In this document: positions 12,538 through 52,314 of the stretch, in pieces | Layout of the letters: each line of letters opens with the position of its first letter | Position numbering within the stretch: the first letter of the stretch is position 1 | Assembly (NCBI GenBank): GCA_965219345.1 | Contig: OZ244732.1 | Span: 1,807,225-1,871,224 of the forward strand | Direction of reading: 5' to 3' | Length of the DNA stretch: 64,000 nucleotides | From: Nitrosopumilus sp. | Lineage (GTDB): Archaea; Thermoproteota; Nitrososphaeria; Nitrososphaerales; Nitrosopumilaceae | The notes under the pieces: model-generated | What the model saw: the letters and a program-made list of their open reading frames with translations, nothing else | What the model was told of the DNA's origin: nothing | Databases searched by the model: none | Translations under genes and position numbers: made by a program

Positions 12538-12820
12538 ATGTGAGCTGGAGCACGACACGCTGCTACGGCAGAGGAAACTCCTCCCTCCATGCAGGAAATG
12601 TGATCCGGAGATGGATAATCAGAGATGATTGGCAACGGAACAGAAAAAAATCCAATATGGCGCACAATGATGGCAAAACCTGAGATTTCCATAAAAGGAA
12701 TGAAAAAGCCGACCCACATGGAGCAAGGCCAAACAGAACTCAAGGTTCCTGTACTAAGTTCAGGTAGGCTGCAAAGCGAAATATCGTGAAAACAGAAGGA
12801 GGGTTACTCCCAGCACACAT
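12538..12820 (+). ncRNA. rnpB: archaeal RNase P RNA
   Basis: GAGGAAACTCC near 5' end and AACAGAAGGAGGGTTA near 3' end (P4 conserved regions); complementary termini ATGTGAGCTGGAG / CTCCCAGCACACAT. Confidence 0.9.
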
Positions 12821-12862: not shown

Positions 12863-14320
12863 TTAGGACAATTGTCCTACAGCTTCTTTACATACGTCGG
12901 TTGAACATTTGCAATCTGCACTGCATATACAAGCGCCTTGCATTGCACAGTCACATGCATAATCAGGATCACCACTATCTGCTTCGCATCCACAGGCTTG
13001 ATCTGTCATGGTAGAGGGTACTGTTTGCGGTGTAGGACTCTGTTGCTGAGTTTCTTCATAAACACTTCTGGTTTGTTGATAACTGGAATCATCTTTTAAT
13101 TGTGCCTCACCTCTATTGGTTTGATAACCGCCAGATGATGCGCTGGTTTGATAACCTACTAATCTATTAGGATCAATTCCCTGTTGACCTTGTGCTTCCT
13201 TTTTGAGCGATCTGTTACTGAAAATAAAAAATCCAATTCCTGCAACAGCTGCAAGTCCTGCCATACCATAAACTATCATTATTGGAAAGCCGCCAGTTGA
13301 AGTTGTTGCATATCCTTCTGGTGGAGTTGGAGTTATACCTGCAATTTCAAGTCCTTCTAATCTGTCCAATGCACCAAAACCAATTGCTGCCAAGTTACCT
13401 GCATCAGCTGATTGTACACTTCTAACAACATAATTTTCGTCAGACACTATTTCAGCTTCAAGGATTTTTTCAATTTGAATTCCTTCTCTGAGGCTACTTT
13501 CACCCATAGTCCAGCTAGAGATAACAAATCCTTGAATGCTTTGATCCAGCCCGAATGTTTCCGCATCTGAAGTAATTCCTGTTGGATCAAACAAAAAGTG
13601 CCAGTTAGTCATTGGTTGCTCTAAAATAAAGTCTGCATTAATGAGAGGTTTGTTAAGAATATCTTCTGCTTCAGTTCCAACAAGGAACGTATAGACATCA
13701 GGTTCTTGGTCTTTAAGTAGGTTTAATGGAATATTGATATCTAGACCATCAATTACAACTTCACCATCAGCAGAGAGTCCCCTCCAACCCAAATCAATCA
13801 AAGTTCTCTGAGAATCTTTTGTAATTACATAATTAGTTAATGTTCCTTCCAAGAGTACTTTGTAATCAATAGATGTGTTGATGTTTCTTGCTTTAAGGTG
13901 AAAATCATAAGTGATATTCAAGTCTGAGACTCTTGCTTGGCTCCCATCAGAAATAATTTTTTCATTAAGTTTAGCTAGAAGTTCTTGAACCCCAGGATTT
14001 GATAAATCAGCAGTGCCAGACACAGTCCATGTTTTCCCACGTAATTCATCAAATAGGTTTCCGCCATTTGGATATTCGATAAATATAGTTTTTAGATAAC
14101 TCATTTTAAATGGGGATGAGTCATTATTGGGATTAATTCTAGCATCTAATTGTGCAGCCCATGCAGGAGCACTTGTACCTACTAGAATAAGACCTGCCAG
14201 CATAATTGTTAAAATTATGATCCTAGACACGAGAAAAATCATGCCCATTAAAGTAATAAACTTATCCAAAATAATGATCGCAATTTTTTGAAAAAGTAAT
14301 ATTGAGTGATGCAAGAACAC
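12863..14320 (-). CDS. single-pass surface protein with Cys-rich C-terminal tail (true start likely ~14230-14246)
   Basis: Signal peptide, C-proximal TM (IVYGMAGLAAVAGIGFFIF), tail CGC..CDC..CIC..CKC..C. Confidence 0.7.
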   Translation of the reverse strand: MFLHHSILLFQKIAIIILDKFITLMGMIFLVSRIIILTIMLAGLILVGTSAPAWAAQLDARINPNNDSSPFKMSYLKTIFIEYPNGGNLFDELRGKTWTVSGTADLSNPGVQELLAKLNEKIISDGSQARVSDLNITYDFHLKARNINTSIDYKVLLEGTLTNYVITKDSQRTLIDLGWRGLSADGEVVIDGLDINIPLNLLKDQEPDVYTFLVGTEAEDILNKPLINADFILEQPMTNWHFLFDPTGITSDAETFGLDQSIQGFVISSWTMGESSLREGIQIEKILEAEIVSDENYVVRSVQSADAGNLAAIGFGALDRLEGLEIAGITPTPPEGYATTSTGGFPIMIVYGMAGLAAVAGIGFFIFSNRSLKKEAQGQQGIDPNRLVGYQTSASSGGYQTNRGEAQLKDDSSYQQTRSVYEETQQQSPTPQTVPSTMTDQACGCEADSGDPDYACDCAMQGACICSADCKCSTDVCKEAVGQLS

Positions 14321-15265: not shown

Positions 15266-15904
15266 TTGAAAATAGCTGCAATTGTTCCTGTAAAGACTTT
15301 CTCTAATGCAAAGACACGTTTAGATTTATCTCCAAATCAAATAGAAGACTTGTGCCAAGTAATGTTAGAAGAAATTCTATATACAATATCAATATCTCCA
15401 CAAATTGAAAAATCAATCTTAGTAACAAAAGAGGAAAAAGCAATTGAGATTGGAAAAAAATTTAACACAATTACCATAATTGATGAAAAAGAAGAAAGTG
15501 TTAACAGTGCAGTTGCGCTTGCAGATAAGTATCTTTTAGAGAATAATTTTGATGCTTCGATCGTGTTTCCTCAGGACATCCCATACATCAAAACCCAGGA
15601 TATTGACTTTGTGTTGAACTACAAGACGCCACCAAATTTTGCAATAGTTGTGCCATCAAGGAGGTTTGATGGAACGAATGCGCTTGTAAGGATGCCCATA
15701 GATCTAATGGAAACGCATTATGACGAGGACAGTTACAAAATTCATATGAATACTGCCAAAGGACACACACGAAATGTAGCAATGGTTTTCGTAAAAAGAA
15801 TTATGTGGGATGTAGACAATACGGAAGATCTAGAATTTCTCTTAGAACAAAATGAAAAGCCCATGATTGCAGAAAAAATCAAAAAAATTTTAGGCGTGAA
15901 TTAA
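15266..15904 (+). CDS. cofC: 2-phospho-L-lactate guanylyltransferase
   Basis: IVPVK...AKTRL, DGTNAL, DVDNTEDL; follows cofD. Confidence 0.92.
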   Translation: MKIAAIVPVKTFSNAKTRLDLSPNQIEDLCQVMLEEILYTISISPQIEKSILVTKEEKAIEIGKKFNTITIIDEKEESVNSAVALADKYLLENNFDASIVFPQDIPYIKTQDIDFVLNYKTPPNFAIVVPSRRFDGTNALVRMPIDLMETHYDEDSYKIHMNTAKGHTRNVAMVFVKRIMWDVDNTEDLEFLLEQNEKPMIAEKIKKILGVN

Positions 15905-15977
15905 TGGAATATATCAAAAAATAGCATAATCGGCGCGCGGTCATATGAAATGATCGACACTTAAGAATACGTGACAT

Positions 15978-16209
15978 GGTTCTGGTAAATTCTGGTGATC
16001 TGCACCATAAATCATCAGATATAGTTCTTCTCCGAACTGCTCTTTGAAACCCTGGGATAACCAGTACCTAGTAACTTTCTTGAGATTATCTATCACAACC
16101 CTGCTGTGATAACCCCCTTTGAGCCATCACATAAACTTGGCACAAAACTGCAAAGTGCAATTCAGAGAAGATCCATATTTCACTCAGATCACTGGAATTT
16201 GCCAGATCC
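15978..16209. mobile_element. MITE-like element 1 (IS6-type ends)
   Basis: Terminal inverted repeats GGTTCTGGTAAATTCTGGTGATCTG / revcomp GGATCTGGCAAATTCCAGTGATCTG; segments recur at 17513-17751 and 19419-19837. Confidence 0.65.
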
Positions 16210-16271
16210 TCCTAAAATTGAACACCCATTTTGATCGCTATTCTTTTATCCAGCTATGTAATCGTAGATTA

Positions 16272-17501
16272 TTGAATTTTAGCAATAAACTGACAATTCC
16301 AGTCATTGTGGTTGCAGCATTGGTTCTGTTGGGGCTGGCAGCTTTGTCCATGACGAATTCTGGCAACATGACAGAATATGCTGCAATTCCCAAAGACATT
16401 GTCACGGGCAACAACGACTTTGCAGTAGACTTTTACGGACAGGTATCGGGCAACGATGACAACATCTTCTTCTCACCTACAAGCATGTACATAGCATTCT
16501 CCATGCTGTACGAGGGAGCGCGTGAAAATACGGCACGGCAGATTCAGCAGGTCTTCGGATTTGATCCCAACGAGGCCCTGCGTCACAACGCAACTGCGCA
16601 CATAATGGCATCTGTCAATCAGGACGACCCGCATGTAACGCTTAACCTGGCAAATGCCATCTGGATTGCCAACTGGTTTGCCCCGTACGACTCATACACT
16701 GACATAATACGCAAGACGTATCTTGCCAAGGCCGAACGCGTCGGTTTTCCGGGCGATGGTGTAGATAAGATAAACGCGTGGGCATCTGAGAAAACGCACG
16801 GCAAGATAAAGAGGGTGTTAGCACCTAATGATGTAAGTGGCCTTACTGCGATGGTTCTGGCAAACGCCATATACTTCAAGGGAACTTGGGTGACGCAGTT
16901 CTCGGTAGAGGATACGCGCGAGTCGGACTTTTGGACAAGCAGTAACAGCATCAGGACTGACTTTATGAACATGCGTGGAACATTCAACTACACCGAAGGC
17001 GACGGCGTGCAGATCCTAAAGATGCCCTACAAGGGCGACAGGCTCTCCATGCTGGTGGTTCTTCCCTCGGAGAGGGATGGCATAAGGGAGCTACAGAAGA
17101 CGCTTTCATCAGAACTCATGCAGAAATGGCAACAGGGCCTAACGGAAAAGGAGGTGATAGTGTCGATTCCAAAGTTTGAGATGAATACACATTATGAGAT
17201 TGGTGATTCTTTGTGGCATCTTGGAATGACAGATGTCTTTAAAGCAGAAACAGCAGACCTCTCAGGTATTGCAGACGTATCAGCGAGAAACTTGTATGTC
17301 TCAAAGGCGATTCAGGACGCATACGTAAAGGTAAACGAGGAGGGAACAGAGGCCGCAGCTGTGACTACCATAGTGATTCTGGCAGATAGCCTGCCACCCC
17401 CACCACCAAGATTTATCGCAGATCATCCATTCATCTTTGTCATACAGGACGATGAGAGCGGCATCATCCTGTTCATGGGACGGGTGTCAGACCCGTCATA
17501 G
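16272..17501 (+). CDS. serpin A, N-terminal signal/anchor (TTG start; the ORF-track extension from 16119 begins inside the MITE)
   Basis: NIFFSPTS, NAIYFKGTW, VSIPKF, hinge EEGTEAAA, FIADHPF, LFMGRV. Confidence 0.93.
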   Translation: MNFSNKLTIPVIVVAALVLLGLAALSMTNSGNMTEYAAIPKDIVTGNNDFAVDFYGQVSGNDDNIFFSPTSMYIAFSMLYEGARENTARQIQQVFGFDPNEALRHNATAHIMASVNQDDPHVTLNLANAIWIANWFAPYDSYTDIIRKTYLAKAERVGFPGDGVDKINAWASEKTHGKIKRVLAPNDVSGLTAMVLANAIYFKGTWVTQFSVEDTRESDFWTSSNSIRTDFMNMRGTFNYTEGDGVQILKMPYKGDRLSMLVVLPSERDGIRELQKTLSSELMQKWQQGLTEKEVIVSIPKFEMNTHYEIGDSLWHLGMTDVFKAETADLSGIADVSARNLYVSKAIQDAYVKVNEEGTEAAAVTTIVILADSLPPPPPRFIADHPFIFVIQDDESGIILFMGRVSDPS

Positions 17502-17512
17502 ACGAGCCCATC

Positions 17513-17751
17513 GGTTCTGGTGAAAAACGGTGATCAGGACCACCAGAATTTAACAGCAGAGTTGTGATGGATAATTTCGAGAAAGTTACCAGGTACTGGT
17601 TATTCCAGGGTTTCAAAGAGCGGTTCGGAGAATAACTATGTCTGATGATTTATGGTGCCAAGGTGCAAGAACAACTGTGGCAGCAGGACTGTTCGGAGAA
17701 GAACTATGTCTGATGATTTATGGTGCAGATCACCAGAATTTATCAGAATCC
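17513..17751. mobile_element. MITE-like element 2
   Basis: Ends GGTTCTGGTGAAAAACGGTGATC ... GATCACCAGAATTTATCAGAATCC; closely similar to 19605-19837. Confidence 0.65.
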
Positions 17752-18024
17752 TGATGCATGTATCGCATACGCAGAACCACCGGCAGTGCTACGGTCCTCA
17801 TTTTCATTGCAGTGGCTTCAATTATGATACTTCTGTACTCAAACGGCAATGCGGTACATGCATATGAAGATACAAGGATTACCTAGATCCACAAAAATGG
17901 CGGCCTGTCAATCACAGACTGAACAGATTGAATGGTACAAAGCCAATGGAGTAGTAGAGAATATGCACCACAATCCAAATTGTGCATGTACTTACACGAG
18001 CCACTAACTAATGGATGGGCCCGC

Positions 18025-19356
18025 CTATGACGGGTCTGACACCCTTCCCATGAACAGGATGATGCCGCTCTCATCGTCCTGTATGATAAAGATGAATGGA
18101 TGGTCGGCGATAAATCTTGGTGGTGGGGGTGGCAGACTATCTTCCATAACCACTATGGTAGTCACAGCTGCGGCCTCTGTTCCCTCCTCGTTTACCTTTA
18201 CGTATGCGTCCTGAGATGCCTTGTCAACGTACAGATTTCTGTCCGGTTCCACCTTTGCTATGCCAGTCAGGTTGGCACCGCGTGGTTTAAAGGCGTCTTC
18301 CATACCCATGGCAATGAGTAACTCATTCAGTTTATAATTTACACGGGTCTCAAACTTTGGAACCGAGACTGTGACTTCCTGGTTTCTCAGGCCTGCCATC
18401 CATCGCTCTATCTGCCCTGCTGATAGAGTCTCTTCAAGCTGCCGTATCCCGTCTGCGTCGTGCGGCAGCAGGATCAGCATCGAGAGTCGGCCCCCGTCGT
18501 ACGGCATCCTGAGCACCTGGACACCATCCATGCTGGAATAGTCAAACATGTTATGCACGTTCATAAAGTCTGTGCTTGTACTCTCAGCACCGTTACCGTA
18601 AAAGTCAGATTTCTTTGTGTCCTCTGCAGGAAACTGCGTCAGCCACGTTCCCTTGAAGTATATGGCGCTGTTGATCACCATTGCGGTGTCCTTGTTGACA
18701 TCTTTTTTTATGATTACTTTGTCAATCTTGCCCTGAGTGTTCTCTGATGCCCATTTGTTTATCCTCTTTATGCCGTCATTCTTATCCAGAAAATCTACCT
18801 TTTCCGCACTTGCAAGGTATGTGTTGCGTATTATGTCAGTGTATGAGTCGTACGGGGCAAACCAGTCGGCAATCCAGATGGCATTTGCCAGGTTAAGCGT
18901 TGCATGCGGGTCGTCCTGATTGACAGATGCCATTATGTGCGCAGTTGCGTTGTGACGCAGGGCCTCGTTGGGATCAAATCCGAAGACCTGCTGAATCTGC
19001 CGTGCCGTATTTTCACGCGCTCCCTCGTACAGCATGGAGAATGCCATGTACATGCTTGTAGGTGAGAAGAAGATGTTGTTGTCGTTGTCTGATATCTGCC
19101 TGTAAAAGTCTACTGCAAAGTCGTTGTTGCCCGTGACAATGTCTTTGGGAATTGCAGCATGTTCTGTCATGTTGCCAGAATTTGTCTTGATGTCTGAAAC
19201 TGAAACAGCGGGGTCGTATAGAGTTGCCGCAGGCTCAGTCTGCGGGCTGTCAGTTGCAGAGTACGGCATGACCACCATGGACAAAGCTGCCAGCCCCAAC
19301 AGAACCAATGCTGCAACCACAATGGCTGGAATTGTCAGTTTATTGCTAAAATTCAA
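18025..19356 (-). CDS. serpin B, paralog of serpin A
   Basis: Same serpin motifs; extra 30-aa linker after the signal/anchor; RCL EEGTEAAAVTTIVVMEDSLPP. Confidence 0.93.
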   Translation of the reverse strand: MNFSNKLTIPAIVVAALVLLGLAALSMVVMPYSATDSPQTEPAATLYDPAVSVSDIKTNSGNMTEHAAIPKDIVTGNNDFAVDFYRQISDNDNNIFFSPTSMYMAFSMLYEGARENTARQIQQVFGFDPNEALRHNATAHIMASVNQDDPHATLNLANAIWIADWFAPYDSYTDIIRNTYLASAEKVDFLDKNDGIKRINKWASENTQGKIDKVIIKKDVNKDTAMVINSAIYFKGTWLTQFPAEDTKKSDFYGNGAESTSTDFMNVHNMFDYSSMDGVQVLRMPYDGGRLSMLILLPHDADGIRQLEETLSAGQIERWMAGLRNQEVTVSVPKFETRVNYKLNELLIAMGMEDAFKPRGANLTGIAKVEPDRNLYVDKASQDAYVKVNEEGTEAAAVTTIVVMEDSLPPPPPRFIADHPFIFIIQDDESGIILFMGRVSDPS

Positions 19357-19418
19357 TAATCTACGATTACATAGCCGGATAAAAGAATAGCGATCAAAAT
19401 GAGTGTTCAATTTTAGGA

Positions 19419-19575
19419 GGATCTGGCAAATTCTGGTGATCTGAGTGAAATATGGATCTTCTCTGAATTGCACTTTGCAGTTTTGTGCCAAGTTTATGTG
19501 ATGGCTCAAAGGGAGTTATCACAGCAGGCCCTGCTGTTAAATTCTGGTGATCTCGCCCAATCTTCTGCCAAATCC
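19419..19575. mobile_element. MITE-like element 3
   Basis: Inverted copy of ~16100-16209 followed by a degenerate second end (..TCTTCTGCCAAATCC). Confidence 0.55.
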
Positions 19576-19604
19576 CAATCCCGTTAGACAGTTGCACAGT
19601 CAGG

Positions 19605-19837
19605 GGTTCCGGTAAAAAATGGTGATCAGGACCGCCAGAATTTAACAGCAGGGTTGTGATGGATATTTCGAGAAAGTTACAGGTACTGGTTATCCCAGGA
19701 TTTCAAAGAGCGGTTCGGGGAAGAACCATGTCTGATGATTTATTTTCTGAACGTTGGTATGATGCGGTTGCAGTAAACTTTGGAGAAGAACCATGTCTGA
19801 TGATTTATGGTATAAATCACCAGAATTTGCCGGAACC
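19605..19837. mobile_element. MITE-like element 4
   Basis: Ends GGTTCCGGTAAA ... TTTGCCGGAACC; body matches element 2. Confidence 0.65.
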
Positions 19838-19858
19838 GTATTTATGAATAAGAAATAA

Positions 19859-20394
19859 TTGCCTTCATTATTGAATGACAAGCAGATCAGTTTAGAAATT
19901 CTACTTGATTGTCATAAGGCATCAAGAAATCAAACAACGGTTCCACGCCAAAAAGAGAATGAAAAATTAAAAGACATGGATCAGAAAGATTATCATTTTA
20001 ACTGTATGTGCCTAAAGGAGCATGATTTATTGCATGGCACTATTACCGCACACGGCCTGGTACCATTTGTGCAATTAGTGGAACAACCGGAACTGGAATG
20101 GATATTGTAGAGTCCTTTATTGATGAGTGCATAGAAAAAACCAAAGATAAGATTACTGGCAAAGCTGTTCATATTCAGATAAGATTCCCGACTTGCCAAT
20201 ATCCGGACTTCAAACTGAGTTGTGTCAACAAGTTGGGAATTACTATCGTCTCTAATTTCATAAAATGCCTATCTCCATACGTGACACCGGACCCCGAATG
20301 TAACGGCACTGAAAACCCCAAGATGTACAGCGCAACACTAACCCCAAATGTCCCGGGTTTAGGACGCAAAAACGACATCACATGCCATACTTGA
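19859..20394 (+). pseudogene. probable frameshifted wHTH-like gene
   Basis: Two overlapping + ORFs that join near 20070 (..HGTITAHG / ..ISGTTGTGMDIVE). Confidence 0.35.
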
Positions 20395-20614
20395 ATGGCC
20401 TGGCCAGCCTGTACCGGCCGTCATTGGACCTTACAAAGTAGACTGGCTTTTTCTGCGGATTGCCCCTTCGGTATCTGGAAGGATACCTTGATGCGGCACT
20501 TGCAGAAATGCGGCACGCCTTTACCAGGTCATTTGGATAAAACGGCTCTTTTAGCTTCCTTGATTTTACCGCCCTGACTATCTTGGCATATGTTGGGTGT
20601 GGGTTTTTTCTCAT
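20378..20614 (-). CDS. small basic putative DNA-binding protein
   Basis: 78 aa, K/R rich, wHTH-like end (FVRSNDGRYRL). Confidence 0.5.
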   Translation of the reverse strand: MRKNPHPTYAKIVRAVKSRKLKEPFYPNDLVKACRISASAASRYPSRYRRGNPQKKPVYFVRSNDGRYRLARPFKYGM

Positions 20615-20797
20615 GTCAAAGAATGGGTTTCTGCCTGTTTTTTAGTTTTTGTTTTAGTGTTTTGTTAACTCATCAGTCTCATCAAAAGTACTGACAGTTA
20701 ACATGGAGAAGATACGCCCACAAAGTTACCAGTCCCAAATGATCAACAGACTTATAAGTAATGAATTAGAAAATGTTAAATATTATCATAAAAGGTT

Positions 20798-34241: not shown

Positions 34242-35285
34242 TGTAGTATATGAAAAGTCGGTCCGCTAGTCATCTGTGTCCCTCTCCATCCATTGCGGGT
34301 CGCTTTTCCTGATCGTATCGGTAGCCGTCTTGTCCGAGAACGCCATAAGTGGCGTCTGGTAGTTGTCTATGTCAAGGGAGAAGTGCAGCCTCTCCCCGTT
34401 GTAGTATTCCATGTACGCAGACAGGCTCTCGTAGTGCCACAGCTCGTCCTCGACTGTCCTGTGGAACCGCTCCAGTTTCCCGTTGGTCTGCGGGTGGTGC
34501 GGCCTGGAGTTTATCAGCTCGATTCCGCGGTCCAACAGCTCTGCCTCAAAGGCAGTCGGCTTCCACGATTTCGCGGGCGGCACCTTGCGGCGGCCTCCCC
34601 GGCCCACAAAGCACGAGCCATTGTCAGAGAGTATGGTCGCAGGCGTGCCAAAGCACCCTATTGCCTTCCTGAGAACAGCCACGGCGTTCTCAGACGTGGC
34701 CTGTGTGAATACCTGCGAGGCCACTATGCACCTTGAGGCGTCGTCCAGGTATGTGACCAGCTGCAGGCCCCTGAACCTGGGCTCCTTCATCTCGTGCCAG
34801 TCGACGTGCCACATGGCGTTGGAATACCTGCGCTCATAGCGTACCCATTTCCGCTTCCTGGATTTTGCAGCAGAGTGCACCACTGAACCGTTCTTGCTCA
34901 ATATCCGGTATACTGTCTGGTAGCTTATATCATGGCTCTTCCTGAGGCTCCTAGCCGTGCGCACCACCCCGACTGGCCTTCTCCCGTGCTCCTCCGTCAC
35001 CAGCCGCATCTGGGCCGCAGTCGCAAAGGCGCGGGGCCTGCCCATCCTTGCGCGCGTGGTTCCGGTCCCGAGGAACCTTGCCCACAGCCTCCTCACGTGC
35101 CTTGCAGTGATGCCGAGGTCAGCTGCCACCTTGGACGGTGCCGCCCCGTTTTTGCGCTGCCTTACTAGGTAGCGCCTGGATTCATCCGTAAGTCTCTTTA
35201 CCATGGGCTTTCGTGATCGGTACAGCCTAAAATAGTCAGATACCGTCCTCTTGATCCTGCGCGGACCTACTTTCCGTACAATTGA
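34242..35285 (-). mobile_element. IS481-family insertion sequence
   Basis: Imperfect 24-bp IRs (..AAAGTCGGTCCG / ..AAAGTAGGTCCG); flanking 16-bp direct repeat AAACAAAAAAAATCAT. Confidence 0.85.
34266..35204 (-). CDS. IS481-family DDE transposase, apparently intact
   Basis: HTH, WHVDW, LDDASR, SDNGS, PQTNGKLERFHRT, YYNGERLH. Confidence 0.92.
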   Translation of the reverse strand: MVKRLTDESRRYLVRQRKNGAAPSKVAADLGITARHVRRLWARFLGTGTTRARMGRPRAFATAAQMRLVTEEHGRRPVGVVRTARSLRKSHDISYQTVYRILSKNGSVVHSAAKSRKRKWVRYERRYSNAMWHVDWHEMKEPRFRGLQLVTYLDDASRCIVASQVFTQATSENAVAVLRKAIGCFGTPATILSDNGSCFVGRGGRRKVPPAKSWKPTAFEAELLDRGIELINSRPHHPQTNGKLERFHRTVEDELWHYESLSAYMEYYNGERLHFSLDIDNYQTPLMAFSDKTATDTIRKSDPQWMERDTDD

Positions 35286-35418
35286 AAACAAAAAAAATCA
35301 TCGAAAAAATATTGTATTTGATAAAATGATCCTAATTCACAGGTAAATGCGTCCAATAGTATGGGATGTCACTATTACCAATTTTGGTCTGACCTGATAT
35401 CAAGAAGACATGAACAGT

Positions 35419-38334: not shown

Positions 38335-39389
38335 TCAGGCCCATCCTCCCTTTGACGTAATCATGTTGTACGTGGCGACCTTGAGCATGATCTCGTGGAT
38401 CATGTTCTCCCGCTTTGCTGCCATCACATACTCGCCAAATATCCTCTTAAAGGCAGAAAACACGATCTCCACTATCCAGCGCCTTCCGTATCTCACCCTA
38501 CTCTTCCACTTTTTCTGGTTCTCCTCTTTCTGTTTGCTTGTAAGCGTTCCCACGGGCTGACAGGCGACCCTCCAAGCTGATCCCGCACTGCCAGCCCCCA
38601 CGCATCGCCGGATCCCTTGCCGCGTGCAGTGGAGTTGATCCCAAGCCGGATGAGTGGCGTGATGCCGCGGTTCTTACACTCCTTGTGGATATTTCGTGAT
38701 GCATATGCACCGTCCCCCAGGATCGAGATGCCTTTGGGGACGGCGGCCGCCTCGGCATCTGCACCTTTGGCTGCATCCTGTTGTCCTGATCCTGCCGTAC
38801 CAAGCTCCGCCTGGTTCAGCTTGCTGTTGTTGCTGTGTCCTGATCCTGCCGTACTAAGCGCCTGGTTCAGCAGGGGGACAAACGTCTTGGAATCCCCCAC
38901 AGAGCCGTCTGTGATCTTCAGCGAGAGGATCAGCCCCGTGTCGGTGTCTGCCAGCGCGTGCATCTTGATAAACCCGCGCCTGACCTTCCACTTTTTATTT
39001 ATCCACTCCCTCCTGTTGGCCACCTTGATGCCTGTTGTATCGACTGCATAGAACATATGCCTGGTGCCGTCCCTTGCAGTAACGGCAACCATGCTGCCCA
39101 TGACCTGGACGCTGAGATCACGAATTCTCCTGAACATGGTGGCGTGATCCGGTATTGGAACGCCGGGCATCATCTCTGATACCATGCCCCGCAGCTGCCT
39201 GTAGGGTATCTGCGCCATGGATCTTATGATGGCAATTGATACAAACAGGGACTCTGCGTATAGGAACGGCGCCCCGTTCTTGCGGCAGTTTGCAGATTTC
39301 AGCTCTTGCTCCCACCCTGGATCCTGGTGCATGGCAAGCATCCTACCACGCTCCACGTACTTTGCGTTGTCTGTAGATGCCACTGTGTA
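38335..39389 (-). pseudogene. IS5-family transposase, frameshifted near 38550, N-terminus displaced to 45063-45116
   Basis: PDHATMFRR, AVDTTGIKV, GFIKMH, LGDGAY, RWIVEIVFSAFKR. Confidence 0.88.
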
Positions 39390-39466
39390 TACTGACGAGC
39401 AAAAGTTCATGAGATCAAACATGTTAGACGGCAACACATTTTGATCACGTCCCACTACGCATTACA

Positions 39467-40080: not shown

Positions 40081-41205
40081 TTATTGGTATTGGCTCAAAG
40101 AGGCATTTTGAATGATAGTCTTCCATTTGTTAGAGCCATCTACAAGAATACCCGCACATTCAGCTGGTGTTTTCTTGTCAATCCCGCCATGTTTCTTCGA
40201 GAAATTATAGAATGTCTGGAATCCTACAAATAACGGACTAGACATTTTTTTGATTCCCCTGTATGCAACTTCACGGTCTCTAATTGTTCCATTCAATCTT
40301 TCCATTCTATTGTTATTTTTGTCGCCTTTCATGTGGATATGGCGGATATGTTCAGTTTCTTTCCACAAAAAGTTTTTTGCCTTGTAATTGTCCTTCCAAG
40401 CCTCATGAAAGTTAGCTGCACCATCAGAGATTAATGTAGTTGGTATCTTATCTGCAATCATCATGGCTTCTCTGAACATAGGTCTTACATTTTCCGTACC
40501 CTTTGTGTTTGCCACATACTGGGTAATCATAAATCTGGTCTCATGATCTAGCATTGAATATTGTAATTTTTGAACACCGCTAATTTTCATAAAGATTTCA
40601 TCTGTTCTCCAAGTTTCAGAAACTCTTGGTACAATCCCCTTTACGTAATTACTGGTCATTTTGGAATATTTTTCAATCCATCTGTATATTGTCATGTGAG
40701 ATACCTTGATGTCTTCCTGCTCAAAACAGTCTGCAATATCCCTGACTGACATTCCTGAAAAATACATCTGCAAGGCTCTAGTGATAAGAACATCTTTTGA
40801 TCTCATTTTCTCAAAGCCAAGATTCAAAGTAAATATTTTATTGCAATCTTTGCATCTGTACTGCTGGACATCTCCTTTCTTGTTTTTTCTAATTCCTTTT
40901 TTGATTAATCTGCCAGAATCACAGAACTTGCAAACTTTGATTAATGATCTTTCAATTATACGGAATGGTTGTTTTTCTCCATTATTGTTTCTGATTAAAT
41001 CCAAAACTATCTTGATATGCTTGCAGTCTGATTTTCTTGTGGTATGATCTGAACAATCACATACCAACCCACTGTCAGTCTTGAATACGATATAATGAAT
41101 CTGTGGAATACTTTGTGATCTTACGCTAAATTTTTCAGAACTTAACTGCACTGCACAGTTTGGTAATTCCATCATCTGTGCTACTCTTTGTGTTCTTGCG
41201 TTCAT
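40081..41205 (-). CDS. IS6/IS240-like DDE transposase with N-terminal SWIM and zinc-ribbon domains
   Basis: CDC..CKH (SWIM), CKFC..YRCKDC, VSHMTIYRW, WRTDE, LISDG, NNRMERLNGT. Confidence 0.88.
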   Translation of the reverse strand: MNARTQRVAQMMELPNCAVQLSSEKFSVRSQSIPQIHYIVFKTDSGLVCDCSDHTTRKSDCKHIKIVLDLIRNNNGEKQPFRIIERSLIKVCKFCDSGRLIKKGIRKNKKGDVQQYRCKDCNKIFTLNLGFEKMRSKDVLITRALQMYFSGMSVRDIADCFEQEDIKVSHMTIYRWIEKYSKMTSNYVKGIVPRVSETWRTDEIFMKISGVQKLQYSMLDHETRFMITQYVANTKGTENVRPMFREAMMIADKIPTTLISDGAANFHEAWKDNYKAKNFLWKETEHIRHIHMKGDKNNNRMERLNGTIRDREVAYRGIKKMSSPLFVGFQTFYNFSKKHGGIDKKTPAECAGILVDGSNKWKTIIQNASLSQYQ

Positions 41206-41291
41206 ATCAATATAATATTGATAACATAATATAACTATTATCAATAGAATATGGATAACAAACTAATAAATAACAATAAAAAATTGATACT

Positions 41292-41749: not shown

Positions 41750-44470
41750 TTGGTAGCACCAGAAGCACTATCTCAAGATGAGATTAATGTAAATGCTATT
41801 GAATTTTCTAAAAGGTGGAAGGATGAAAAAAATGAAAAATCAGAGGCACAGACATTCATAAACGACTTCTTTCAAGTTTTTGGTTTAGATAGAAAGTCAG
41901 TTGCAAAGCTAGAAGCACACCCTGATGGCTCTGGCGGTTTTATGGACTGTTTTTGGCAAGGCAAGTTTATGATCGAGATGAAAAGTCTTGGAGAAAACCT
42001 TGACAAGGCAATGGATCAGGCTCTTGATTACTATCTACAACTGAAAAAAGATCAAGAACCGAGATACATCCTCGTATGTGATTTCGAGCATTGGTATTTA
42101 CGGGATAAAAAAGAAAATACAGACCATTTCTTTATACTGCCTGAGCTAGTCGAAAATATCGGACTGTTTGGATTCATGACAAACAGATCCAAGCTGATAC
42201 GTGCAGATCCTGTAAACTTGTATGCCTCAGAAATTTTAGGCAAAATCTTTGACATGCTAAAAGCATCAGGCTATGGCACTCACCATGCGGAGTATTTTTT
42301 GACAAGATTGGTATTTTGTCTGTTTGCAGACGATACTGGCATATTTGGAGATCGTGGAAAGTTTCAATCATACATTAAAAATTCCACCCAAGAGGATGGG
42401 TCTGATCTGGGCAGGTATCTGGCATACTTATTCGGCGTATTAAATCAAGAAAGAGAATCACGCTCAAAAACAATGGACCCTAAAACTAGGTCTTTTCCCT
42501 ACATCAATGGTGCATTATTTGAAAAACCAATCGAATTTCCAGACTTTAGTGCCAAGATGAGAGAGTTGCTAATCCATGCGGGGGCATATGACTGGTCCAA
42601 AGTGTCCCCTGCAATCTTTGGCAACATGTTTCAGACGGTCATGAACCAGGATGCCCGTCGTGAGATGGGTGCACATTATACATCAGAGGAAAACATTCTC
42701 AAGGTGATTAGACCACTGTTCCTGGACAAGCTAAATGATGAATATGATGAAATAAACAAAATATCAGATGACACCAAAAAAGACAGGTTCGTAGAGTTTC
42801 AAAACAAGCTAGCCAGCCTAAAGTTTTTAGATCCTGCATGTGGCTCTGGAAATTTTTTAGTTGTTGCATACCGTGAAATTAGAAGACTGGAACACCGTGT
42901 CATAATGAAGATATATGGATATGATGGAAAAAGAACAGACACAGACCAACTATCAAAGGTTGATGTAGACCAGTTTTATGGCATTGAAATTATAGAGTTC
43001 TCATCACGCATTGCAGAGACCTCACTTTGGATGATGGATCATATCATGAATGTCGAATTATCCAACAGATATGGATATAGATTCAGACGTATCCCAATCA
43101 ACAAGAAACCAACCATCGTATACAGGGATGCGTTGGAGTTTGACTGGAACGAACTACTTCCAAGCTCAGAATGTTCATACATCTTGGGAAATCCGCCGTA
43201 TGGTGGTTCGAAGATTATGAAGCGTGAGCAGAGGGAGCAGATCAAAAAAAATGCATGCATTGGAAAAACTGGTGGCACACTGGATTATGTTACTGGTTGG
43301 TTCTTCAAGGCGGTTAGATACATCAAAGGCAGTACTATCATAGGATTTGTGGCCACAAACAGCATATCACAGGGGGAGCAGGTAGGTCAGTTATGGCCAG
43401 CTTTGACCAAGGAGATAGAAATCATATTTGCACACGAGTCATTCAAATGGGGATCAGAAGCAAAGGGAAAGGCAAATGTTCACGTAATAATATTAGGATT
43501 AGTAAAAAAAACAAAAGCCGACGGGCTTACTAAGAGATTATTTTATTATGAAAACGGAGAAGTTTTCGAGAGTAATCCCAAGTACATATCACCATATGTG
43601 TGTAGTACAGAAAAGCTGGATATTATAGTGCATAAATCACCAAAATCATTAAACAATTTGCCTGAGATGATAATGGGTTCCAAACCTATTGATGATGGCA
43701 ACTACATATTCAAACAAGAAGAAGGAGAAGAATTTTTGAAAAAGGAGCCAAACGCAAAGAAATTCATGAAGGAATACATCAGTGCCAAAGATTTCATACA
43801 CGGTAAAAAAAGATGGATTCTGGCACTACATGAAATAGAGCCGTCTGAATTAAAGAATCTACCTGAAATAAAAAAACGTGTGAGGATGGTAAAGGAATTT
43901 AGATTAAAAAGCAAGGATGGTGGGACAAGACAACTTGCAGATACCCCAACAATATATCATCTTAATGTAATTCCCAAAAAACGGTTTTTGGTAATACCCC
44001 GTGTAAGCTCAGAAGAACGAGACTATATTCCTATTGGATACATAACACCACCTGCAATACCTAGTGATGCTACAATGATTATCCAAAATGCCGGTCTTGG
44101 ATTATTTGGACTACTAACATCAAAAATGCACATGGTGTGGTTAAAATCAATCGGTGGCAAATTGGAAACTAGATTAAGATATTCATCAGGAGTGGTATAC
44201 AACACGTTTCCCGTTCCAGATGCTGACATAAAGGTATTGAGAGAATTTGCACAGGAAATACTTGATGCCCGTAAGAATCATTCTGATTCAACTTTGGCCG
44301 ACCTTTATAATCCAGACACAATGCCAGTTGATCTGACAAAGGCACACCAAAAGTTGGACAATGAGGTAGAAAAACTGTACCGAAAAGAACCATTCAGATC
44401 AGATGATGAAAGGCTGGAGTTTCTCTTGAATGAATACCAAAAAATGACATCAAAACAAACTACTCTCTAA
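41750..44470 (+). CDS. MmeI-like type IIL restriction-modification enzyme (REase + m6A MTase + TRD)
   Basis: FMDCFW..IEMKS nuclease motif, GAHYTS, FLDPACGSGNFL, GNPPY, IPRVSSE, RYS..VYNTFP. Confidence 0.9.
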   Translation: MVAPEALSQDEINVNAIEFSKRWKDEKNEKSEAQTFINDFFQVFGLDRKSVAKLEAHPDGSGGFMDCFWQGKFMIEMKSLGENLDKAMDQALDYYLQLKKDQEPRYILVCDFEHWYLRDKKENTDHFFILPELVENIGLFGFMTNRSKLIRADPVNLYASEILGKIFDMLKASGYGTHHAEYFLTRLVFCLFADDTGIFGDRGKFQSYIKNSTQEDGSDLGRYLAYLFGVLNQERESRSKTMDPKTRSFPYINGALFEKPIEFPDFSAKMRELLIHAGAYDWSKVSPAIFGNMFQTVMNQDARREMGAHYTSEENILKVIRPLFLDKLNDEYDEINKISDDTKKDRFVEFQNKLASLKFLDPACGSGNFLVVAYREIRRLEHRVIMKIYGYDGKRTDTDQLSKVDVDQFYGIEIIEFSSRIAETSLWMMDHIMNVELSNRYGYRFRRIPINKKPTIVYRDALEFDWNELLPSSECSYILGNPPYGGSKIMKREQREQIKKNACIGKTGGTLDYVTGWFFKAVRYIKGSTIIGFVATNSISQGEQVGQLWPALTKEIEIIFAHESFKWGSEAKGKANVHVIILGLVKKTKADGLTKRLFYYENGEVFESNPKYISPYVCSTEKLDIIVHKSPKSLNNLPEMIMGSKPIDDGNYIFKQEEGEEFLKKEPNAKKFMKEYISAKDFIHGKKRWILALHEIEPSELKNLPEIKKRVRMVKEFRLKSKDGGTRQLADTPTIYHLNVIPKKRFLVIPRVSSEERDYIPIGYITPPAIPSDATMIIQNAGLGLFGLLTSKMHMVWLKSIGGKLETRLRYSSGVVYNTFPVPDADIKVLREFAQEILDARKNHSDSTLADLYNPDTMPVDLTKAHQKLDNEVEKLYRKEPFRSDDERLEFLLNEYQKMTSKQTTL

Positions 44471-49924: not shown

Positions 49925-51133
49925 ATGGAATTAATTATTGATGTTTTCAACTATTCATTAACTGCAATTTTGATTGGGGTTTGCGGATCTTGGATATTTC
50001 TTATCAAATCAATGGTTAATTCATTTAAATTTACACCATATCTTGACAAATTTGAAAATACTTCTAAATCATTTCCCAAGGTTTCAATAATTCTTCCAGC
50101 AAGAAATGAAGAAGTATTTATTGGTAAATGTTTAGACTCGTTAACTAAACAAGACTATGAAAAATATGAGATTATAGTAATTGATGATTCATCTGATGAT
50201 GCAACATATAAAATAATTTCAGAATATGCAAAAAAATATTCTAAAATAATTCCAGTTTCTGCGAGACCTAAACCAGAAGGGTGGATGGGTAAAAACTGGG
50301 CATGTATGGAAGGATATAGAAAAGCAACAGGAGAACTCTTGTTGTTTACTGACGCAGATACAAATCATTCTAAAAATATAATATCGCTTGCAGTGGCTCA
50401 TTTAATTTCATTTAATTTAGATGCATTATCTGCAATTCCAAAAATGCTTACGTTTGACTTTTTGACCAAGATTACACTTCCAATGATTTCTACATTTTTA
50501 CATACTAGATTTTCAGCATTGAATGTTAACAATCCATCAAAAAAAACAGGTTATTTCTTTGGAAGTTTTTACATCTTGAAAAAAAAGACATACGAAGAAG
50601 TTGGTATGCATGAAGGAGTAAAACAAGAAATTATCGAAGATGGTGCGCTTGGAAAAAAAGTGAAAGAATTAGGATACAAAATGAAGATGGTAAGAGGAGA
50701 ACATCTAATTGATGCTGCGTGGGCTCGAGACAAAAGCACTTTATGGAATGCGCTAAAAAGACTAATGGTTCCACTATACCTTCAAAATGGAAAGATTGCA
50801 ATTGGCATTTTCTTTGCGGTATTATTTTTGTTGTTTGTTCCATTTCCGATATTTGCTGTATCTGCATTGCTACCAATAGAGACCATATCTGCAAATATAC
50901 TTTGTATTACTGCAGCAATTGCTTCAATTCTAATTTACATAGGTGCAATAATTGAGGCAAAAGTTGGACTTGAATTAAGATTTGTTCATGCACTATTTGC
51001 ACCACTAGGTAGTTTGGTAGTAGTTTTAGGATTTTTGGGAGGACTGCTTCAAGCAAAGAGTACATCGGCTGTTACATGGAAAGAGCGAAGCTATTCAATG
51101 AAAGATCATACTCAAAGTTCAATCAAGGTATAG
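49925..51133 (+). CDS. GT2 glycosyltransferase, membrane-bound
   Basis: ILPARNEE, DDSSDD, GWMGK, FTDAD, IEDG. Confidence 0.9.
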   Translation: MELIIDVFNYSLTAILIGVCGSWIFLIKSMVNSFKFTPYLDKFENTSKSFPKVSIILPARNEEVFIGKCLDSLTKQDYEKYEIIVIDDSSDDATYKIISEYAKKYSKIIPVSARPKPEGWMGKNWACMEGYRKATGELLLFTDADTNHSKNIISLAVAHLISFNLDALSAIPKMLTFDFLTKITLPMISTFLHTRFSALNVNNPSKKTGYFFGSFYILKKKTYEEVGMHEGVKQEIIEDGALGKKVKELGYKMKMVRGEHLIDAAWARDKSTLWNALKRLMVPLYLQNGKIAIGIFFAVLFLLFVPFPIFAVSALLPIETISANILCITAAIASILIYIGAIIEAKVGLELRFVHALFAPLGSLVVVLGFLGGLLQAKSTSAVTWKERSYSMKDHTQSSIKV

Positions 51134-51171
51134 CAATCCTTTTACATAGAAAACTGAGAATAAAAAATCTC

Positions 51172-52314
51172 ATGGCTAATTCAGGTATGTTTGTGGGCGG
51201 TGCTGTGGGAGCTATGATTGTTATTATTGTATTTGCAGTACTATTTGTTTCACCACCAGAATCGATTAAACCAGAGATTGTGGTAAGTAATGGTCATACG
51301 CCAAGTACAGTTGGAGAAGTAACTCCAATTTATTCAAAGAGTTTATCATTAATTGAGATTTTTGAAAAATCTGAATCAGGTGTAGTAAGAGTAAATGTTC
51401 AAAGAAATGAAATTGAGGATGTAGCAAATGGGTTAGGTTCAGGTTTTGTTTTTGATAAAAAAGGACACATCATTACAAATGCTCACGTTGTTGATAATGC
51501 AAAAAAGGTTGTAGTTACATTTCTTGACGGAAGATCATATAATGCAGAAATTATTGGGACAGACCAATTTACAGATCTTGCAGTGATCAAAGTCAATGCA
51601 GACTTGACTCTTTTACACCCATTACCACTTGGTGATTCATCTAATCTCAAAGTGGGAGAAGCAATAGCTGCGATTGGAAACCCATTTGGGTTATCAGGTT
51701 CCATGACTTCAGGGATAGTAAGTCAATTAGGAAGATTACTTCCATCAGGTTTAGGATATTCTATTCCAGATGTAATTCAAACTGATGCAGCCATCAATCC
51801 TGGAAATTCAGGAGGACCGTTACTTAACATGAGAGGAGAGATTGTGGGGATTAACACTGCAATTCAATCAGCAACAGGTGAATTTACAGGAGTAGGATTT
51901 GCAATACCATCACAGACTGTTGTCAAAATTATTCCAACCCTAATTGGAAAAGGAGAATACAAACATCCATGGATTGGGATCTCAGGTAGAGACATTGATC
52001 CAGATTTAGCAAAAGTTTTGGGCCTAAAAGATGCAGTAGGATTTTTGATTGTGACCGTTATAGAAAACAGCCCAGCCTCTAAAGCAGGATTAATTGGGTC
52101 TGAAAAAACCATTGAATTTGAAGGGCTCAATTATCCAATGGGTGGAGACATAATTTTAGCAGTAGACGATATTGAAGTTAGACAGATTGACGATATTTTG
52201 ATACATCTTCAAAGAGGAAAAACAGTTGGAGATGAGATGTTTTTAGAGATTTTAAGAGATGGTAGAACAACAGATATCACAATTGTTCTCCAAGAAAGAC
52301 CAAATGGAAATTAG
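51172..52314 (+). CDS. HtrA/DegP-like serine protease with PDZ domain
   Basis: GSGF, TNAHVV, DLAVIK, QTDAAINPGNSGGPL. Confidence 0.93.
   Translation: MANSGMFVGGAVGAMIVIIVFAVLFVSPPESIKPEIVVSNGHTPSTVGEVTPIYSKSLSLIEIFEKSESGVVRVNVQRNEIEDVANGLGSGFVFDKKGHIITNAHVVDNAKKVVVTFLDGRSYNAEIIGTDQFTDLAVIKVNADLTLLHPLPLGDSSNLKVGEAIAAIGNPFGLSGSMTSGIVSQLGRLLPSGLGYSIPDVIQTDAAINPGNSGGPLLNMRGEIVGINTAIQSATGEFTGVGFAIPSQTVVKIIPTLIGKGEYKHPWIGISGRDIDPDLAKVLGLKDAVGFLIVTVIENSPASKAGLIGSEKTIEFEGLNYPMGGDIILAVDDIEVRQIDDILIHLQRGKTVGDEMFLEILRDGRTTDITIVLQERPNGN

Follow-up and report, generated by a model that had tools for sequence, protein, structure and literature searches.

Which proteases would the two convergent serpin genes of a Nitrosopumilus sp. 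genome trap? The genes, here called serpin A and serpin B, lie on contig OZ244732.1 in a stretch of 64,000 nucleotides that we refer to as the window and number from its first letter. A sequence-only reading of this DNA had singled out the span 17337-18190, which runs from the hinge of serpin A through intergenic DNA to the hinge of serpin B, and had proposed that both proteins are secreted or anchored inhibitors with Asp at P1, tuned to Asp-specific host proteases of the caspase or granzyme type and under diversifying selection in the reactive-centre loop. Our analysis bears out the P1 and P1′ assignments, a probable anchoring or secretion and the selection on the loop, and it speaks against the tuning to caspase- or granzyme-type host proteases. 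A fast-evolving archaeal family that often sits beside secreted subtilisin-type proteases is a better fit than a set of caspase blockers. We therefore favor, at slightly less than an even chance, a reading in which A, B and a duplicate of B elsewhere in the genome (serpin C) are functional inhibitory-type serpins whose targets would be serine proteases outside the cell that tolerate Asp or Glu at P1, subtilases foremost. The serpins would trap the protease as suicide substrates, with the scissile bond after Asp (A and B) or Glu (C) and before Ser. The features on which the argument turns are the following.

16119..17501, + strand: stop-to-stop open reading frame (ORF) of serpin A, from the frame list.
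16272..17501, + strand: serpin A coding sequence, 409 aa, TTG start at 16272, alternative GTG at 16308, stop at 17499-17501.
16290..16349, + strand: hydrophobic N-terminal segment of A (LTIPVIVVAALVLLGLAALS), a putative signal anchor or signal peptide, from the alignment of homologue N-termini.
17337..17399, + strand: reactive-centre loop of A, P17 to P4′, with P4-P2 (ILA) at 17376-17384, P1 Asp at 17385-17387 and P1′ Ser at 17388-17390.
18025..19509, - strand: stop-to-stop ORF of serpin B, from the frame list.
18025..19356, - strand: serpin B coding sequence, 443 aa from the TTG at 19356.
18127..18189, - strand: reactive-centre loop of B, P17 to P4′, with P4-P2 (VME) at 18150-18142, P1 Asp at 18141-18139 and P1′ Ser at 18138-18136.

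Both genes encode complete serpins that are 71% identical at the protein level. Serpin A matches the Pfam family Serpin (PF00079) with an E value of 7.5e-113 over model positions 2-370 of 370, serpin B matches the whole model (E 1.1e-116), and the invariant serpin core residues are retained in each. Sequence matches of A in the PDB go down to E 9.9e-73. An AlphaFold2 model of A (pLDDT 84.5) renders P15-P1 (residues 358-372) as a strand that ends exactly at the Asp, and its top Foldseek matches are cleaved or latent serpins, with 1hle_A superposing at an rmsd of 1.6 over 347 columns (TM 0.93 on the target). The inserted strand and the state of the matched structures suggest that the loop, as modelled, could insert as strand 4 of sheet A.

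The N-termini would place the proteins at the cell surface. The N-termini of homologues, Met-Lys/Arg followed by a hydrophobic stretch, fall at the position of ORF codon 48-52, candidate start codons are found at ORF codons 52 (TTG) and 64 (GTG), and a 2-bp indel between B and C lies inside the stretch upstream of the TTG (window 19441-19442). Because of these three observations, the first 51 codons of each stop-to-stop ORF are probably untranslated. The remaining proteins open with about 20 hydrophobic residues, matching the hydrophobic N-termini of the homologues; residues 14-25 of A form a low-confidence helix in the model, and a Pro/Ser/Thr-rich linker of 34 residues follows the hydrophobic segment in B and C and is absent from A. 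A and B are thus probably exported and held at the surface by this segment, as the earlier description of them as secreted or anchored had it, and with such an anchor they would act outside the cell.

The loop of A reads EEGTEAAAVTTIVILAD-SLPPPPPRF and ends VILAD/S, and that of B reads EEGTEAAAVTTIVVMED-SLPPPPPRF and ends VVMED/S, the slash marking the predicted scissile bond. The gapless match to the alpha1-antitrypsin loop that had been reported for both holds when A is aligned by HMMER with a conserpin bearing that loop (6ee5): the alignment is gapless from the hinge to P2′, with Asp opposite Met and Ser opposite Ser. The C-terminal 69 residues of A are equal in length to antithrombin 361-429 and set the Asp opposite residue 393, which we take to be the P1 Arg, and in leukocyte elastase inhibitor (4ga7) the Asp of A faces Cys, followed by Met. 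The hinge is of the inhibitory type (EEGTEAAAV; loop E-E-G-T-E-A-A-A-V-T-T-I-V-I-L-A-D), with 17 residues from P17 to P1 and a slightly bulky Val at P9. These alignments confirm the sequence-based assignment of Asp to P1 and Ser to P1′ in both proteins.

The loop stands out again when the serpin copies of this genome are compared. The genome (1.91 Mb in 2 contigs, 99.5% complete) has three serpin loci, the third of which (L001, at about 1.483 Mb of G000:C1, 340 kb from A and B) carries serpin C, a 98.7% duplicate of B that scores 394.6 bits against the serpin domain. The repeated segments are as follows.

17863..20686: 2.8-kb segment duplicated at L001, where it bears serpin C; 98.2-99.5% identity in three blastn pieces.
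16100..16752: 5′ block common to A and B, with its inverted copy at 18786-19528; 94-98% identical (inverted repeats I1 and I2).
17286..17512: 3′ block common to A and B, which holds the loop, with its inverted copy at 18014-18240; 91% identical over 227 nt (inverted repeat I3).

The loop of C ends VVIAE/S and so has Glu at P1. The coding sequences of B and C differ at 8 synonymous and 11 nonsynonymous sites, and three of the latter are single-base changes in adjacent loop codons, at P3 (Met in B, Ile in C), P2 (Glu in B, Ala in C) and P1 (Asp in B, Glu in C). The comparison of loop and scaffold that the sequence-only reading had called for gives a dN of 0.40 in P4-P1 and 0.008 elsewhere, with a dS of 0.028; the chance of such clustering is 1.3e-4, and dN/dS outside the loop is about 0.3. 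Between A and B, the three consecutive nonsynonymous single-base differences noted earlier at P4-P2 (ATT/GTT, CTG/ATG and GCA/GAA; window 17376-17384 and 18150-18142) are real on codon comparison, although the 3′ block around them, which had been described as near-identical, is in fact 91% identical. From codon 399 to the end, A and B differ by four nonsynonymous changes, three of them at P4-P2, and four synonymous ones (chance of at least three of the four falling in P4-P1, 0.0011). Because nonsynonymous changes strike three consecutive loop codons in A versus B and again in B versus C, the sequences point to diversifying selection on the loop, as had been proposed. We note that A and B are mosaics, with codon windows 86-99% identical in the 5′ block versus 53-66% mid-gene; the middle of A resembles P0002 and L004 and that of B resembles P0004. 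Since the two genes are alike at both ends and divergent between them, the ends have likely been homogenized by gene conversion. P0003, the representative of the cluster of B, reads VVMAD, and a T>G variant at 18143 in one public DNA run (Glu to Ala in the P2 codon of B) matches it; this variant may be copy C or a P0003-like allele.

To place these loops in their clade, we used the best 120 of 6912 protein matches (53-99% identical), loci of named metagenome-assembled genomes (MAGs) labelled Nitrosopumilus, Cenarchaeum or Nitrosopumilaceae, and the window itself, which together gave 180 close relatives with a recognizable hinge and 165 once identical ones were removed; A, B and C cluster with P0002, P0003 and P0004. 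P1 was assigned by counting 17 residues from the hinge, and sequences with a misfit hinge lie outside the 165 (for example L031, L055 with Thr at P1, and L076 with a degenerate hinge). The tabulation of P1 that had been suggested for thaumarchaeal serpins gives Glu in 44, Thr in 28, Asp in 24, Ser in 19, Val in 12, Ile in 11 and other residues in 27, so that an acidic P1 is the commonest state (68/165), with Glu ahead of Asp. Ser occupies P1′ in 120 loops, 55 loops read Glu-Ser or Asp-Ser, and 7 of the 19 loops with Ser at P1 have Asp or Glu one residue earlier. None of 10 outgroup loops (Woesearchaeota, Methanosarcinales and bacteria) is acidic at P1, where they have Thr, Lys or Phe. In a set of more distant representatives (148, giving 138 loops) the counted P1 is acidic in 10 of the 138, and in 16 further loops a Glu-Ser or Asp-Ser pair lies one position earlier. 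Many of the distant representatives are tandem two-serpin proteins of 600-1400 aa with two different loops per chain (P0122, P0130, P0131, P0152, P0154, P0160, P0170, P0173, P0174, P0178, P0184, P0217, P0233 and P0247).

A tree of these 165 sequences shows 30 changes of the acidic state, whereas shuffling gives 52 on average and never fewer than 42. Between the members of 48 disjoint close pairs, divergence is 7.5% in the scaffold versus 39% in P5-P1, a turnover about five times that of the scaffold. Where a close pair has an acidic P1 (20 pairs), both members are acidic in 14, several of them with an Asp/Glu swap. From the P1 counts, the tree and the close pairs, an acidic P1 is the leading but not universal state of this clade, Glu is commoner than Asp, and the state is no peculiarity of the source genome.

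The gene order in relatives suggests where a target may be found. In 12 distinct pairs on 6 contigs, the serpin ORF starts 40-50 nt after a same-strand subtilase ORF of 1230-1790 residues that has Peptidase_S8, Ig-like domains and a proprotein-convertase P-domain. The paired serpins have a normal hinge in 11 of the 12 cases, and P1 is Asp or Glu in 9 of these 11; once a near-duplicate is set aside, P1 is acidic in 8/10 paired serpins versus 60/155 others (Fisher p 0.017, the kin not being independent). Of the 401 species-level genomes examined in this family, 82 have a serpin match (a count that takes in the source genome and G340, which is flagged as unpublished) and 37 have a P-domain match; serpin matches are found in 31/98 genomes within the genus and in 16/27 genera. 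When the two tallies are set against each other, serpins are found in 22 of the 37 genomes with a P-domain match versus 60 of the 364 without one (Fisher p 4e-8, again for kin that are not independent), and 10 genomes from 5 genera have both matches on one strand and at most 4 kb apart. Colocalization of serpin and subtilase has been published for Ca. Nitrosospongia ianthellae (PMC6790972). The large secreted S8 + P-domain subtilase encoded directly upstream in relatives would thus be the leading target candidate. In one 2.49-Mb Nitrosopumilus MAG, entire subtilase-serpin units, including a tandem double unit, recur near-identically at different positions of one contig (L019/L021 and L024/L026), which indicates recent amplification of the pair.

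The same observations bear on whether the serpins could be cross-class inhibitors of host Asp-specific cell-death proteases (caspases or granzyme B-like enzymes) in the manner of cowpox CrmA and of PI-9 (SERPINB9), the idea from which the earlier tuning claim came. The loops do invite the comparison: P4-P1′ is LVADC in CrmA and VVAEC in PI-9 (PMC2315678), so that ILAD/S of A resembles the former and VIAE/S of C the latter, with an acidic P1, aliphatic P4-P3 and, in A and C, Ala at P2, and the acidic P1 is kept while the loop diversifies. Iripin-4, a secreted tick salivary serpin with Glu at P1, inhibits granzyme B weakly (PMC10167670). On the other side, P1′ is Cys in CrmA and PI-9 and Ser in A, B and C (Cys is perhaps not essential), and A and B have a proline run at P3′-P7′. 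The N-terminal anchor of A and B would put them outside the archaeal cell, with no evident route to host cytosol. CrmA and PI-9 act inside the cytosol, where caspases also act, so that A and B would not share their compartment. Caspases, moreover, strongly prefer Asp, and granzymes are vertebrate enzymes, whereas C has Glu at P1, Glu outnumbers Asp in the clade and the two residues swap between close paralogues. In relatives, the same acidic loops sit behind genes for secreted S8 proteases, and the main texts of PMC6790972 and PMC7848895, on sponge-associated ammonia-oxidizing archaea, speak of neither caspases nor granzymes. We accordingly regard such a role as very improbable and do not retain the proposed tuning to enzymes of this type.

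If the paired subtilases are targets, they should accept acidic residues, and their propeptides offer a possible sign of this. An acidic E-V-D motif is present in 12/12 available subtilases about 31 residues before the catalytic Asp, where the propeptide should end. Its last residue is Asp in all 12; two positions earlier, 10 of the enzymes have Glu, one has Asp and one has Ala. The motif takes the form GDGE..V..(E/D)(V/T)D then xARxTIxA and is seen in the L005, L014, L017-L019, L024, L039, L040, L047, L054 and L076 subtilases upstream of serpins. The L076 serpin (L076:5857-7221) has a degenerate, noninhibitory-looking hinge, and its partner is the subtilase without an acidic residue two positions before the motif Asp. 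The first residue of 9ues_B, the shorter solved Tk-type chain of the best-matching PDB relative (compared with 3afg_A), maps into the motif by gapless back-extension; should this chain begin with the mature N-terminus, the enzyme would process itself at an acidic residue, as would fit a protease that accepts Asp or Glu. It is therefore possible that the conserved motif is an acidic self-processing site of the paired subtilases.

Several points weigh against targets of this kind. The propeptide junction is uncertain by a few residues because the alignment was extended across an unaligned stretch. Directly after the oxyanion Asn comes a residue that lines the S1 pocket of subtilisins. Located with a Savinase-type chain as the alignment reference, this residue is Arg in 5 of the 12 paired subtilases, Ser in 4, Gln in 1, Glu in 1 and Gly in 1; it does not track the P1 of the partner serpin (one Arg-type enzyme is paired with a P1-Val serpin and one Glu-type with a P1-Glu serpin), so that S1-pocket covariation failed as a sign of acid specificity. 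Typical subtilisins prefer a large hydrophobic P1, and the subtilase might for that reason cut at P2-P4. P1 is as changeable on the tree as P2-P4 (79 versus 78-94 changes), and one member loses the acidic P1 in 6 of the 20 close pairs. Among serpin-bearing genomes, 60 of 82 are without a P-domain match, and the 99.5% complete source genome has none either; its four S8 loci (at about 0.17, 0.75, 0.82 and 1.42 Mb) do not adjoin its serpins (1.48 and 1.82 Mb). Inhibition, cleavage site and partner are, finally, predictions from sequence. Structure prediction counted neither way: the AlphaFold2 model of a subtilase with 80 propeptide residues (pLDDT 42.7) is too low in confidence to place the S1-pocket residue, and the predicted complex of the L019 S8 catalytic domain with its adjoining serpin scored 0.00.

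Since the source genome has no S8 + P-domain subtilase, its three serpins are orphan cassettes, and under our favored reading they would act on the other S8 proteases of the cell or on proteases from neighbors or a host. A search of the source genome for a Glu-specific S1 protease returned a single chymotrypsin-fold match, an HtrA-like gene in the window:

51013-52311, + strand: HtrA-like protease (Trypsin_2 + PDZ), the only chymotrypsin-fold protease found in the genome.

The orphan state also speaks for an alternative in which the serpins would shield the archaeon from extracellular or phagosomal (digestive or immune) serine proteases of an animal host that happen to accept an acidic P1, the loop turnover then reflecting an arms race. 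The fast loop change and the predicted extracellular location agree with such a shield, some of the nearest relatives are MAGs that bear the names of known sponge symbionts (isolate TS, IBTHAUMO2 and Cenarchaeum), and serpins are concentrated in sponge-associated ammonia-oxidizing archaea, for which protection from host proteases has been proposed (PMC6790972, PMC7848895). The distribution over 82/401 family genomes and 16/27 genera is, however, broader than these papers report, no host is known for the source genome, and from the conserved order of subtilase and serpin genes one would expect the archaeon itself to supply the target. We also know of no Asp/Glu-specific host serine protease in sponges. 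We consider a host shield unlikely, but it is the alternative to which we would give the most weight.

A further alternative concerns the role of the acidic residue itself, which might not be the functional P1 at all; elastase- or subtilisin-type enzymes would then attack at the aliphatic P2-P5, and the Asp or Glu would be a gatekeeper against trypsin- or chymotrypsin-like enzymes that waste the inhibitor. P5-P2 are indeed aliphatic (V/I/L/A/M) in A, B and C, Thr, Val and Ile form the second-largest P1 class (51/165), and the enzymes in the pairs belong to the subtilases. Cleavage at more than one position of the loop is seen in some bacterial serpins, and miropin structures are among the structural matches of the A model. 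This explanation has to contend with the spacing from hinge to Asp, which is exactly 17 residues as in the conserpin with the alpha1-antitrypsin loop and in antithrombin; cuts one to three residues early normally weaken trapping. The acidic enrichment is, in addition, specific to the counted P1 and is followed by Ser (the 55 Glu-Ser or Asp-Ser loops noted above). A gatekeeper role therefore seems improbable to us.

The setting of A and B adds a mobile dimension to the story, for which the following features are needed.

15884..20743: inserted island with both serpins, 4.86 kb, 46% GC versus 34% around it.
15975..16107: MITE-like repeat of 133 nt with inverted-repeat structure; copies or parts at 17513-17753 and 19419-19837 (families D1-D4 and I4-I14).
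20378..20614, - strand: 78-aa basic ORF in the duplicated segment, 100% identical in L001.
12540-12818, + strand: archaeal RNase P RNA (Rfam RF00373, 196 bits).

The serpin genes have 49% GC, and their GC3 of 57% compares with 19-27% in the neighboring cofD and tfb. Only 62 bp separate the cofC end (window 15883) from the tfb side (window 20744) in L013, a relative whose serpin occupies a different nearby site as a 2.7-kb cassette just after the RNase P RNA (between window 12839 and 13056). The MITE-like repeat has 12 matches in the source genome, 7 of them at serpin loci; outside the window they lie at about 0.907, 0.914, 0.919, 0.951, 1.483 and 1.502 Mb of G000:C1. L004, the closest orthologue of A at 81% identity, is surrounded by IS110 and DDE transposase genes. 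Because of the GC contrast, the empty site in L013, the bordering repeats and the transposases near L004, the serpins look like horizontally moved cassettes from a higher-GC relative. The 78-aa ORF has no Pfam or NCBIfam match, and the NCBIfam search gave no name for serpin A.

Such a setting could also be that of decaying or noninhibitory passengers of a mobile island. Besides the island and its bordering repeats, one might cite the lack of an ATG start in A and B and the fact that no public RNA run is listed for the region, parts of which are contained in 12 public DNA runs. The intact frames and full Pfam match, the retained core residues, the inhibitory-type hinge and the dN/dS of about 0.3 outside the loop in B versus C all speak for maintained function, and we give the passenger explanation almost no weight.

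A bolder version of the favored reading joins the motif to the mobility of the genes. The S8 + P-domain subtilases of the Nitrosopumilaceae might be Glu/Asp-specific, self-processed at the E-V-D motif and curbed by co-transcribed acidic-P1 serpins, with orphan cassettes spreading on mobile DNA as portable shields against the proteases of neighbors. To the best of our knowledge, no natural subtilase is specific for Glu or Asp at P1, and we regard this version as doubtful.

Elsewhere in the window, a 485-aa ORF has no Pfam or NCBIfam match, and high-GC spots at 34-41 kb that were considered as rRNA were rejected, as IS or integrase genes lie there; the three mobile-element genes listed below make up two of the GC-rich spots, and the stretch around them is an insertion zone.

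12863-14320, - strand: 485-aa ORF with a hydrophobic segment and a Cys-rich C-terminus.
34266-35291, - strand: rve integrase, in a 50-52% GC spot.
38493-39455, - strand: DDE_Tnp_1 transposase, likewise.
40081-41244, - strand: IS240-type DDE, likewise.
41750-44470, + strand: complete MmeI-type restriction-modification enzyme with all five MmeI domains (E down to 1.6e-79), adjoining the IS genes.

Among known systems, the closest are the serpins of sponge-associated ammonia-oxidizing archaea (MEROPS I4; Ca. Nitrosospongia ianthellae and Cenarchaeum symbiosum; PMC6790972, PMC7848895), which belong to the same Pfam family and archaeal family and are likewise multicopy and predicted to be extracellular. 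Compared with serpins from named Nitrosopumilaceae MAGs, among them IBTHAUMO2, isolate TS and Cenarchaeum sp., A and B show 47-66% identity. They differ from the sponge-archaeal proteins in that the latter adjoin S08A subtilases and in that A and B are carried by an inserted island whose high GC contrasts with the 33% of the genome; one IBTHAUMO2 serpin has Thr at P1, unlike A and B. Iripin-4 (7zbf; PMC10167670), a PDB match of A at E 8.8e-52, shares the acidic P1 and the secretion; unlike A and B, it comes from an animal and is directed against a vertebrate host. In hyperthermophilic archaea, Tk-serpin and Pnserpin are reported to inhibit subtilisin- and chymotrypsin-like proteases of the cell itself, and an intracellular housekeeping role has been proposed for their group of prokaryotic serpins (PMC8233489), in contrast to the predicted export of A and B. 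The main texts of PMC6790972 and PMC7848895, supplements aside, do not contain the terms "reactive cent", "RCL", "scissile", "caspase" or "granzyme", and neither an acidic P1 nor a loop hot spot is mentioned there. We know of no P-domain subtilase that shares an operon with Tk-serpin or Pnserpin. Both the gene family and its link to subtilases are already known; what appears to be new is the bias to an acidic P1, the hot spot in the loop between near-identical copies and the setting on a mobile island.

These findings extend the earlier genome counts of serpins in ammonia-oxidizing archaea to the loop that determines specificity, on which the main texts of PMC6790972 and PMC7848895 are silent. 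An acidic P1 followed by Ser is the leading loop of the family, the loop is a hot spot of change even between copies that are 98.7% identical, and the genes move on islands. What had been a vague idea of host interaction becomes a direct test of which Asp/Glu-accepting protease gets trapped. If the paired subtilases are the targets, they would represent a new S8 specificity class; if the target is a host enzyme, a concrete point of contact between archaeon and animal would have been named.

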